From Escherichia phage vB_EcoM_VR20: 64,000 nt of DNA. The notes beneath the pieces are model-generated. The model was not told the origin of the DNA and did not search any database. It worked only from the letters and a program-made list of their open reading frames with translations. Position numbers and translations under genes: made by a program. Shown here piece after piece: positions 4,308 through 6,063 of the stretch. Location of the stretch: sequence record NC_028894.1; one strand, written 5' to 3'. The number at the start of each line of letters is the position of its first letter. Within the stretch, counting starts at the first letter, position 1.

Positions 4308-4343
4308 TACTTTTTGAAGAAAATTTCAAATTTATTCGGGGTA

Positions 4344-4366
4344 TAAAAAAGCCCGCAATGCGGGCT
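4344..4366 (-). terminator. intrinsic terminator (minus strand)
   Basis: Hairpin AGCCCGC-AAT-GCGGGCT followed on the minus strand by a U-run (plus-strand AAAAAA 4345..4350); sits just downstream of gene 4368..4922. Confidence 0.6.
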
Positions 4367-4367
4367 G

Positions 4368-4922
4368 TTAGTTCTTATAAAAGCGGAACGGATTTATATG
4401 AAAGGCGAGCATAGCCTTAGGGATGGGTCGGGACAGAAGGCTCTTGAGCTTCCAGCCACAATAAACACGCAGATAAAAGGTGATTCCACCGACCTTAAGA
4501 TAAGGAACAGAAGCAAAAACACCCCAGGCGTTGTCCGTCCACATCCAGAGCCATCCATGATGAGCTTTATCCGGGGAACCAGATTCGACATCAGGATTAC
4601 CTTTATAATGGAATTCTGAATTGCAATCACGACCGAGCTTGTGGTAAGCAAAATTGTATGCTTTGTTTCGCCAGAGCCAGGCTACTCGTTGGAAGTAAAC
4701 ACCTAACGGCCATTTTCTGATTTTTTCCCAGCGTTTAACATGACCACGGTCACCATCAATTGGATTATCGTATGTCATCATCCAGTCAAATCCGAACGGA
4801 AGCTTACCAGTCTTTTTGTTATGGAACGGCACTACAAATGGTGCAAGGATAACAGCCAGAATCATTGAAATGAAATCCAGTGGCACTAACAGAATCCAGC
4901 TTAGATATTTTAAAAGTTTCAT
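4368..4922 (-). CDS. membrane-anchored protein, Trp/aromatic-rich, unknown function
   Basis: ATG at 4922; N-terminal hydrophobic helix (LSWILLVPLDFISMILAVILAPFVV); terminator hairpins on both flanks. Confidence 0.55.
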   Translation of the reverse strand: MKLLKYLSWILLVPLDFISMILAVILAPFVVPFHNKKTGKLPFGFDWMMTYDNPIDGDRGHVKRWEKIRKWPLGVYFQRVAWLWRNKAYNFAYHKLGRDCNSEFHYKGNPDVESGSPDKAHHGWLWMWTDNAWGVFASVPYLKVGGITFYLRVYCGWKLKSLLSRPIPKAMLAFHINPFRFYKN

Positions 4923-4954
4923 AAATTTCCTTAGTTATGGGTACGTTATATTTA

Positions 4955-4984
4955 TAAAAAAGCCCCAACCTTTCGGAAGGGGCT
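4955..4984 (-). terminator. intrinsic terminator (minus strand)
   Basis: Hairpin AGCCCC...GGGGCT with inner CC-UUUC-GG, followed on the minus strand by a U-run (plus AAAAAA 4955..4960). Confidence 0.55.
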
Positions 4985-5032
4985 AAGCCTTGCGGCAACC
5001 TTGTCGGGGTTCCACCTGCTAGGCAAGTGTTC

Positions 5033-5416
5033 TTATCCGCGTGCGAATGCCATTGCAGCGCGTTCGTTGGCACGGTCAGTGATGTTCAAGAATTTATCAC
5101 GAGCGATTTCGATTGGAGCACCAACCCAGTCAGCAGCACCATTACCTGGGGACTGTTTAGGACGAACCATATAAGTTGAAACTTTGGAACCAGCTAGTTT
5201 AGCACCAGGTGCAGCGGCATTCTTAACGTCTTTAGCTTTGATACCAAAACCAGTTACGATGCCCCAAGAAACACCATTAACTGGTTTCTTGAACATAACA
5301 CGGTCGCCAATTGAAACACCCGCTTTTTCTGGAGCTACTAAAGAAAATTTACCGGCTTCAGTCAGCACGGATTCGGTGATGGTATTGCGATTTAAAAATT
5401 CTGCATATGTAAGCAT
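5033..5416 (-). CDS. hypothetical protein
   Basis: ATG at 5416, 127 aa; weak RBS; terminator downstream. Confidence 0.45.
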   Translation of the reverse strand: MLTYAEFLNRNTITESVLTEAGKFSLVAPEKAGVSIGDRVMFKKPVNGVSWGIVTGFGIKAKDVKNAAAPGAKLAGSKVSTYMVRPKQSPGNGAADWVGAPIEIARDKFLNITDRANERAAMAFARG

Positions 5417-5653
5417 TTTGTTTTTCCATTATTAGGGTTGTTGTTAATATTTATATTCCATAGTACCGGATGCACCATCCGCTCGGATTTCTCATACTAC
5501 CGGGCGCACCGCCCGCTCTGGAAAAACTCCATAAAAAGGTGCGCCGTTTCTGCTGTGATATAAGGGGACATCAACAAATCGTAAAGATTTATTAATGTCA
5601 GTCCTTAAACAGGGAACATCAGTCCGACGACTTACCGGTAGCGACCCGGTTTC

Positions 5654-5893
5654 TCATTCAATTGTAATAGCTAATTTGACTTTAACAACCTTATAATTGG
5701 AATCAAGGTCATTGAATTCCATAAAATTTGTTGCTAATCTGCGAGTCGGGAAACTTAGATATTTATTATGAGCCGGAGGAGCGGTTAATGCAAACCATGG
5801 GACTTGTTTATCATTTGCATCGAACTCGTCAAAACTATAAACCAGCTCGTTGTTGGTTATATCCATAACCGCATAGGATTCGTTAATAACCAT
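5654..5893 (-). CDS. hypothetical protein
   Basis: ATG at 5893 with GAGGA RBS, immediately downstream (minus strand) of the tRNA pair. Confidence 0.45.
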   Translation of the reverse strand: MVINESYAVMDITNNELVYSFDEFDANDKQVPWFALTAPPAHNKYLSFPTRRLATNFMEFNDLDSNYKVVKVKLAITIE

Positions 5894-5910
5894 ATAATAT
5901 CCTCAGTAAT

Positions 5911-5987
5911 TGGTCGGGGTGGTGGGATTCTAACCCACAACCTACGGTTTAGAAGACCGTTGCTCTATACAATTGAGCTACACCCCG
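5911..5987 (-). tRNA. tRNA-Arg (anticodon TCT), CCA encoded
   Basis: Minus-strand sequence folds as a cloverleaf: acceptor CGGGGTG/CACCCCG, D-arm GCTC/GAGC, anticodon stem ACGGT/ACCGT with loop CTTCTAA, T-arm GTGGG-TTAGAAT-CCCAC, 3' ACCA. Confidence 0.8.
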
Positions 5988-5989
5988 AG

Positions 5990-6063
5990 TGGCCCCATCC
6001 GGACTTGAACCGGAAACCTGCCAGTTATGAGCCGGATGCTCTAACCAATTGAGCTACAGGGCC
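5990..6063 (-). tRNA. tRNA with anticodon CAT (Met or Ile2-type)
   Basis: Minus strand: acceptor GGCCCTG/TGGGGCC (two GU pairs), D-arm GCTC/GAGC, anticodon loop CTCATAA, T-arm TCCGG-TTCAAGT-CCGGA, discriminator A. Confidence 0.75.

Follow-up and report, generated by a model that had tools for sequence, protein, structure and literature searches.

Escherichia phage vB_EcoM_VR20 (sequence record NC_028894.1) was analysed over a window of 64,000 nucleotides (nt), by which we mean the whole stretch of DNA under study, with a focus on a non-coding interval close to its transfer RNA (tRNA) genes. An earlier note on this sequence had described about 200 nt of non-coding DNA beside the gene 5654-5893, containing two hairpins, and had suggested a stable RNA analogous to those that T4 carries next to its tRNA cluster. 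The non-coding stretch was found where it had been placed, as 237 nt (5417-5653) between two open reading frames, ORF127 and ORF79. It holds two elements, separate from each other: an ortholog of the T4 small RNA gene rnaD and a hairpin-bearing leader of ORF127. The idea of a T4-like stable RNA was partly borne out, in that the interval contains a full-length rnaD ortholog (89% identity). The hairpins on which the idea had been built lie outside rnaD, in the next 120 nt downstream.

The nearest relatives of the window are members of the genus Gaprivervirus, T4-type coliphages, with ~96% identity to DK-13 and P896 across 1.1 kb. All genes around the interval are on the minus strand. Read on this strand, tRNA-Met(CAU) (5989-6063) and tRNA-Arg(UCU) (5911-5987), both detected by ARAGORN and Rfam, are followed by ORF79 (5654-5893; phrog_33509, E = 7.6e-57), the 120-nt rnaD ortholog (5538-5657), the 121-nt leader with both hairpins (5417-5537) and ORF127 (5033-5416), an orphan accessory gene which in tblastn searches always co-occurs with the hairpin leader. 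Next comes a 75-nt trailer with the intrinsic terminator of the tRNA/rnaD/rnaC transcription unit (4957-5031), 92% identical to the sequence after T4 rnaC and 100% identical to that of VR7. We favour a reading of the interval that combines the rnaD ortholog with the ORF127 hairpin leader, at a rough probability of 0.55.

The rnaD ortholog and its variable central hairpin

T4 rnaD (species 2 RNA; NC_000866, 71053-71171) was matched end to end by blastn at 5657-5538 on the minus strand (108/122 identical, 89%, E = 5e-39), and it is close to certain that this segment is its ortholog. The copy is 100% identical to those of DK-13 and RZ. Homologs were found in 733 phage records, some of them annotated as rnaD, many unannotated or lying under doubtful ORF calls. 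No covariance model for rnaD exists in Rfam. The structured small RNA of the interval is thus the already known rnaD, and the 120 nt left blank or placed under spurious ORFs in most related GenBank records can be annotated as such. Short hypothetical proteins are annotated over rnaD or over the hairpin leader in UPEC01, pEC-M719-6WT.2 and vB_YenM_P8, in part on the opposite strand, and probably result from spurious ORF calling.

The element resembles T4 rnaD in its strand, in its position after tRNA-Arg within the tRNA cluster, in its predicted fold and in its 3′ end GGCGCACC. Differences concern its neighbours and its centre. Whereas tRNA-Arg and rnaD are 1 nt apart in T4, here the 240-nt ORF79 intervenes between tRNA-Arg(UCU) (5987-5911) and rnaD (5657-5538), as an ORF does in RB69, T2 and SG1. 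The partner gene rnaC is missing, and the central hairpin is one of at least four allelic versions among T-even-like phages.

We collected 31 distinct rnaD sequences from 34 loci. Both ends are invariant in this set, with AGAA(A/G)CCGGGUCGCUACCGGUAAGUCGUCGG at the 5′ side and AUCACAGC(A/U)GAAACGGCGCACC at the 3′ side. The first four bases annotated as rnaD (5654-5657) include the stop codon TGA of ORF79 (A-TGA-GAAACC), and other phages carry ACAA, TTAA, ATAA or CTAA there. Since these four positions vary among phages, the conserved rnaD probably starts at AGAAACC.

From 22 of the distinct sequences RNAalifold gave a single consensus fold composed of a 5′ hairpin, a closing helix and covarying inner pairs. 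The 5′ hairpin P1 (5634-5650, minus strand; alignment columns 8-12 with 20-24) has the stem ACCGG/CCGGU and a 7-nt loop, GUCGCUA; one of its pairs is AU in 19 sequences, GU in 2 and GC in 1, and P1 is present in every single-sequence fold. A terminator scan of the plus strand had flagged this hairpin as ‘terminator-like’. The closing helix joins GUCGUCG (5625-5631) to the 3′ strand CGGCG-C-AC (5539-5546). It was predicted by RNAalifold and in four of five single-sequence folds; in the fifth, of the IME08 type, the same strands pair in a shifted register. Covariation was observed for inner pairs, in particular between columns 40 and 110 (AU:10, UA:8, UU:3) and between columns 51-53 and 99-101. 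Five divergent variants folded singly in silico also reached a common overall architecture.

The central hairpin (5560-5612) exists in at least four unrelated versions among T-even-like phages. These are mixed across near-identical genomes, DK-13 differing from TH41 and a third version occurring in M719, EAWsc9 and TH44. This variation looks like cassette-style allelic exchange within a non-coding RNA.

We propose that rnaD would be a structured RNA of ~120 nt, co-transcribed with the tRNA genes and excised from their precursor. Its 3′ end CGGCGCAC would pair with GUCGUCG and thereby close a domain holding the long hairpin that differs between phages. By analogy with T4, it would be expected to accumulate as a stable RNA in this phage. 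Two observations speak against this part of the reading: ORF79 separates rnaD from tRNA-Arg, and the closing helix has no support from covariation, both of its strands being invariant in the 22 sequences.

RNAC and RNAD have no known role (PMC3014915, PMC9697503). In T4 they have been classed as late RNAs, with a northern blot cited in support for which the described probe is RNAC (PMC9697503), and a convergent single-nucleotide polymorphism in rnaD has been reported during adaptation of a T4-like phage to a semi-permissive host (PMC12685909). The survey given here amounts to natural genetics of the two RNAs. In the 733 records rnaD is kept with invariant ends and a swappable central hairpin, while rnaC is dispensable, being deleted in Dhakavirus-type genomes and replaced by ORF127 in the present phage. 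This pattern of retention directs work on these 50-year-old orphan RNAs toward rnaD and its variable hairpin. The main value of the analysis lies in the corrected annotation and in this picture of natural variation.

The ORF127 cassette and its tandem hairpins

Sequence similarity to T4, VR7 and RZ breaks off precisely with the last base of rnaD (5538) and sets in again at 5031. The ~146-nt rnaC of these phages, which in T4 begins 6 nt past the rnaD 3′ end, is replaced here by 505 nt consisting of the 121-nt hairpin segment and ORF127. No rnaC match was obtained anywhere in the window (best E = 0.98). In Dhakavirus-type genomes, where rnaC is deleted, rnaD directly adjoins the trailer. The trailer itself carries a 7-bp hairpin (CACUUGC/GCAGGUG) and the intrinsic terminator GCCCCUUCCGAAAGGUUGGGGCUUUUUU, and closes the transcription unit whether rnaC, nothing or ORF127 comes before it.

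The leader and ORF127 co-occur in the same 14 phage genomes, all Gaprivervirus-like, with at least 99% identity for ORF127 by tblastn. Neither 20,395 E. coli records nor 72,556 plasmids matched the leader and ORF127 (5033-5540), which gave no support for a host or plasmid origin of the cassette or for an E. coli REP/BIME or other repeat taken from the host. The hairpin motif retrieved at least 119 stretches from IMG/VR and at least 120 hits from metagenome contigs. Among the matches listed, those from IMG/VR were all single chance matches in unrelated, mostly high-GC DNA, and those from the metagenome contigs were likewise only chance matches; a stricter form of the motif gave 0 matches in IMG/VR. 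ORF127 itself has no Pfam or PHROG match and no IMG/VR homolog, and forms one cluster in a set of 5.8 billion proteins.

Both hairpins reported in the earlier note are present, and the differences between their stems are compensatory as had been claimed. Their coordinates needed a shift, having been given 1 nt too high: on the plus strand, CGGAT-GCACC-ATCCG lies at 5467-5481 and CGGGC-GCACC-GCCCG at 5501-5515. Instead of 5-bp stems with 5-nt loops, a 6-bp stem and a loop of 3 nt give the better description of each (CGGATG/CATCCG and CGGGCG/CGCCCG on the plus strand). The plus strand on which they had been read is the non-transcribed one. In the minus-strand RNA, hairpin 1 is CGGGCG-GUG-CGCCCG (5501-5515) and hairpin 2 is CGGAUG-GUG-CAUCCG (5467-5481), and only two base pairs, next to each other, distinguish the stems. 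The additional GC-rich pairing that had been mentioned corresponds to a perfect 8-nt inverted repeat (5503-5510/5538-5545), which is indeed present and within chance expectation (p ~0.2).

The hairpins are embedded in a tandem direct repeat with a 34-nt period (5459-5518, minus strand), whose unit is composed of UCC(A)GAG, the hairpin and GUA-s-UAUG(A)GAA. The two 26-nt copies, 5459-5484 and 5493-5518, are 81% identical, and gapped alignment extends the similarity to ~34 nt per unit. Their common pattern CGGNNGGTGCNNCCGGTA occurs exactly twice in the window (0.12 expected), a count reached by none of 100 shuffles. After the hairpins, the minus strand continues with GUAGUAUG and GUACUAUG, and the plus strand with CUCGGAUU and CUCUGGAA. 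Neither is followed by a U-run on either strand, so that they do not qualify as intrinsic terminators.

Around this segment, searches for known RNA families were negative. The covariance search that the earlier note had recommended assigned the hairpin segment to no family: Rfam in E-value mode returned only noise over 4900-5920 (E ≥ 0.42), and only the two tRNAs in the window pass the gathering threshold. ARAGORN detected nothing tRNA-like in the interval. Homology of the hairpin segment to rnaC and rnaD is absent. On the minus strand, the intergenic region as a whole folds more favourably than its shuffled versions (z = -3.7, 0/200 shuffles), the signal coming mainly from the rnaD part; the hairpin segment alone gave z = -1.3 to -1.8.

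Two other origins or functions for the segment were considered and rejected. A derivation from rnaD or rnaC would have to rely on a shared ATGAGAAA(T)CCG (p = 0.11) and an inverted GGTGCGCC (p = 0.21), with no match to rnaC. Small ORFs over the hairpins (MEFFQSGRCAR and MRNPSGWCIRYYGI, each ending at a stop codon) have no Shine-Dalgarno (SD) element, and the compensatory changes, as read from the sequence, alter their amino acids. In this window only, AUGGAG replaces the ACGGAG of 12/12 relatives, and the new AUG at 5523-5525 opens an 11-codon ORF over hairpin 1. As no SD element precedes it, this AUG is probably meaningless.

Besides the hairpins, the leader contains a perfect 9-nt inverted repeat. 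Its 5′ arm GUUUUUCCA (5519-5527, minus strand) is preceded by a U-rich spacer containing GGAG (5528-5537). Its 3′ arm UGGAAAAAC (5420-5428) carries the only SD-like element, a GGA 8 nt before the ORF127 AUG at 5416. A 9-bp match to the ribosome-binding window was obtained in ~1% of dinucleotide shuffles and in 0.5% of random genomic placements.

We examined the three proposed helices in an alignment of 13 leader orthologs (11 distinct sequences, 94-99% identity in the hairpin segment). Hairpin 1 is CGGGCG/CGCCCG in 6 phages and CGGACG/CGUCCG in 7, both sides always changing together; among the 11 distinct sequences, 5 have G-C and 6 have A-U at its fourth pair. In TH40 and TH44, an A to G change in hairpin 2 produces a G-U wobble in minus-strand RNA; on the plus strand it amounts to a C-A mismatch. 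In YenP8, a C to U change in the long-range 3′ arm likewise keeps a G-U pair, the other 8 of the 9 pairs of this helix being invariant. All 4 variable positions within the three helices thus retain standard pairs in 100% of cells, a level reached by 1/500 column shuffles, and slid registers gave 32-55%. None of the stem substitutions breaks the pairing. Since neither wobble would pair on the plus strand (C-A or A-C), the structures fit a minus-sense RNA.

Taken together, the hairpins are likely to be RNA structures selected on the minus-strand transcript. Some caution is called for, because variation is scarce at 94-99% identity: hairpin 1 may owe its compensatory change to one event only, and a templated quasi-palindrome mutation could yield such a change without selection.

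A possible masking of the ORF127 ribosome-binding site

The T4-type late promoter motif TATAAATA lies 32 nt upstream of the ORF127 AUG (5448-5455, minus strand), between the arms 5527-5519 and 5428-5420. This motif is present in 22 copies in the window where 4.7 are expected (0/100 shuffles), most of them on the strand of the neighbouring genes. On the minus strand, the scan from the tRNAs to ORF127 revealed neither a sigma-70-like promoter nor a terminator. Read-through into ORF127 is therefore expected, with no such site dividing it from the tRNA/rnaD unit.

A comparable arrangement is established for the leaders of the T4 genes e, soc, 49 and I-TevI (PMC3014915): in RNA reading through at early or middle times the ribosome-binding site is masked, and late transcripts begin within the structure. 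Common features are the position of TATAAATA between a 5′ arm and the ribosome-binding site with which that arm can pair and, as a prediction for the present phage, transcription entering the gene from upstream together with a late transcript devoid of the 5′ arm. In contrast to the single local stem-loop of the T4 leaders, the arms here are 90 nt apart and enclose two extra hairpins, and the weak SD element is covered while the AUG is not. The present leader is known from its sequence and from folding prediction.

On this basis the hairpins could act as cis-acting stem-loops in read-through transcripts from the tRNA/rnaD unit, where they would compact the leader, a 90-nt loop between the arms. 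GUUUUUCCA (5527-5519) would then pair with UGGAAAAAC (5428-5420) and mask the ribosome-binding site of ORF127. Transcription from the late promoter TATAAATA (5455-5448) would yield RNA devoid of the 5′ arm, and this RNA would be translated. As a consequence of masking in read-through RNA and escape in late transcripts, ORF127 would be made only late in infection. The hairpins may in addition insulate maturation of the rnaD 3′ end from the downstream messenger RNA (mRNA).

Folding with ViennaRNA is compatible with this scheme. In RNA initiated upstream, with rnaD either held in its conserved fold or removed, the long-range helix has a probability of 0.92-0.97 and the GGA is unpaired with a probability of 0.00-0.02. 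In the late transcript, starting after the promoter, the latter value is 0.34.

Several points weigh against such masking. When the whole read-through RNA is folded without constraint, the rnaD 3′ end pairs with hairpin 1 and the probability of the long-range helix falls to 0.02. The 9-bp helix, identified post hoc, is rich in A/U and bridges 90 nt, and it covers a weak SD element, leaving the AUG uncovered. Uncompensated length changes, each giving a 1-nt bulge, occur in MN01 and TH55 (one A short in the A-run) and in TH54 (one extra U in the U-run). Masking also leaves the hairpins themselves only an auxiliary role. For the A/U-rich and post hoc character of the helix, the uncompensated length changes and the different pairing preferred by the unconstrained fold, we put forward the masking of the ribosome-binding site in read-through RNA, and its relief in late transcripts, as a tentative model with the odds somewhat against it. 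That read-through transcription takes place, and that the helix forms in vivo and blocks translation, we infer from the layout of the locus and the predicted folds. If the model is true, ORF127 would be one more case, in a long-range version, of the late-only translation switch of T4. The hairpins would most plausibly be a small cis-element of a rare gene cassette and belong to this known T4 style of late-gene control.

The pairing between the rnaD 3′ end and hairpin 1 chosen in the unconstrained minimum free energy structure was considered as a candidate interaction in its own right. It is probably incidental, as it is within chance and competes with the conserved closing helix, which is transcribed first.

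Stable intercistronic hairpins in T4 mRNAs, for example C(UUCG)G, were reportedly described by Tuerk and colleagues in 1988. The present hairpins are similar in being short, very stable G+C stems between cistrons of a T4-type phage, and differ by their loop, GUG (or GGUGC), by their tandem duplication and by their conserved flanks.

Other explanations of the hairpins and the neighbouring cassettes

The hairpins could instead serve the processing or stability of rnaD and have no part in translational control, a view that takes up the RNA processing element named as an alternative in the earlier note. The A/U-rich single-stranded spacer UUUUUAUGGAGUUUUU followed by G+C hairpins would be an RNase E-type entry site in place of rnaC, exonucleases would trim back to the rnaD closing helix, and the ORF127 mRNA fragment on the downstream side would have its 5′ end capped by the hairpins. 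Consistently, all three layouts (rnaC, direct trailer and hairpin leader) have their module boundary precisely at the rnaD 3′ end, a stable hairpin or structured RNA lies within 3-22 nt of rnaD in each of them, the hairpins vary in a structure-preserving manner on the minus-strand RNA, and the GGAG and U-runs of the spacer are invariant in 13/13 orthologs. However, rnaD manages without these hairpins in Dhakavirus-type genomes, and neither the presence of two repeated hairpins nor the 9-bp complementarity to the ORF127 ribosome-binding site is explained. We regard a processing role as possible but rather unlikely as the explanation of the hairpins; it is compatible with masking of the ribosome-binding site and not exclusive of it.

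Alternatively, the palindromes may act at the DNA level or be a recombination scar without RNA function, a duplicated junction left when the ORF127 cassette replaced rnaC. Their symmetry would then be kept by templated quasi-palindrome mutation, or they would be sites for a dimeric DNA-binding protein. Their location at a recombination junction, their restriction to 14 near-identical genomes and the unexceptional folding energy of the segment (z = -1.3 to -1.8) would suit this view, and one templated switch can make both halves of a compensatory change. Against it, G-U wobbles account for two of the three variable stem pairs; they interrupt the palindrome in the DNA and preserve RNA pairing on just the transcribed strand. 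The stems covary around an invariant loop and between invariant flanks, and no similar site was found elsewhere in the window. An origin of this kind has little chance of accounting for the hairpins.

A more ambitious proposal joins the covarying tandem hairpins and the orphan SH3-like ORF127 into a self-contained RNA-protein module that displaced rnaC beside rnaD, either as an operator with its binding protein or as a new small RNA with its partner. It would mean that a stable non-coding RNA and a protein-coding cassette are functionally interchangeable in the tRNA/small RNA locus of T-even-like phages. We see only a slim chance for it.

It is very unlikely that the ~80-nt hairpin segment is a separate small stable RNA substituting for rnaC, in the sense of the earlier note. 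The segment does fill the rnaC slot right after rnaD, and besides its two stable hairpins it could form closing helices between UUCCAGAG and CUAUGGAA (read from the sequence and not the preferred fold). Yet it shows no rnaC homology, tRNA-like features or Rfam match, its folding energy is unexceptional, its 3′ part overlaps with the late promoter and the ORF127 leader, and it is limited to 14 genomes.

Hardly more credit can be given to the hairpins as operators for an RNA-binding protein, possibly ORF127 itself in an autoregulatory loop, as in phage coat-protein or N/boxB systems. Hairpins and ORF127 strictly co-occur, loop and flanks stay identical as the stems covary, and the AlphaFold2 model of ORF127, of low confidence (predicted local distance difference test score 60.8), is a small SH3/KOW/Tudor-like barrel, and nucleic-acid binders are among the proteins with this fold; the structural matches of the model are generic small-barrel folds. 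A search of 1.8 billion representative proteins retrieved two distant ORF127 homologs, one of which adjoins tRNA genes in a T4-like contig. No comparable hairpins were found upstream of either homolog, which counts against the favoured reading and removes the support for a conserved protein-operator pair.

Transcription signals, whether sigma-70 early promoters (with GGTAsTAT as -10), cassettes of the promoter-early stem-loop (PeSL) type or intrinsic terminators, can practically be dismissed: the hairpins are G+C-rich and GGTACTAT matches the -10 region of a promoter-like sequence upstream of T4 e.8 (GTTTACA, 17 nt, GGTACTATA; that it is an early promoter is our own reading), but there is no -35 element or TG extension, the promoter scan is empty at 5417-5537 on the minus strand, no U-run follows either hairpin on either strand, and TTTAC-N(14-20)-GGTANNAT has no match anywhere in the window.

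The PeSL cassettes of RB49/phi1-type phages are said to mediate modular gene shuffling, in work attributed to Arbiol and colleagues (2010). They share with the present locus the occurrence of short repeated stem-loop regulatory sequences at the edges of accessory cassettes within a hyperplastic region, and the adjacent ORF184 cassette is also flanked by terminator repeats. The hairpins studied here differ in having no strong sigma-70 promoter or terminator U-run and in that their motif is confined to this place in the window.

In the distant T4-like contig (L154, region 1600-1990), the 202-amino-acid ORF127 homolog lies just downstream of tRNA genes, including a tRNA-Gly at 1734-1808. Some 100 nt of G+C-rich non-coding DNA, ending in a terminator-like hairpin, separates the tRNA genes from the homolog, and an ATAAATA late-promoter-like core is present ahead of it.

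The CAU tRNA at 5989-6063 (minus strand), a tRNA-Met according to ARAGORN, has an ortholog annotated as tRNA-Ile2 (CAU) in the EAWsc9 record. On the other side of the locus, the cassette of ORF184 (DUF7338; 4922-4368, minus strand) is absent from VR7 and SP18. Within 4342-4965 it is bordered on both sides by terminator hairpins ending in GGCUUUUUUAUA, a direct repeat of ~12 nt at 4965-4953 and 4354-4342, and a late-promoter motif (4956-4949) is fused to the terminator upstream of ORF184. This organization looks like module shuffling mediated by terminator and promoter sequences.

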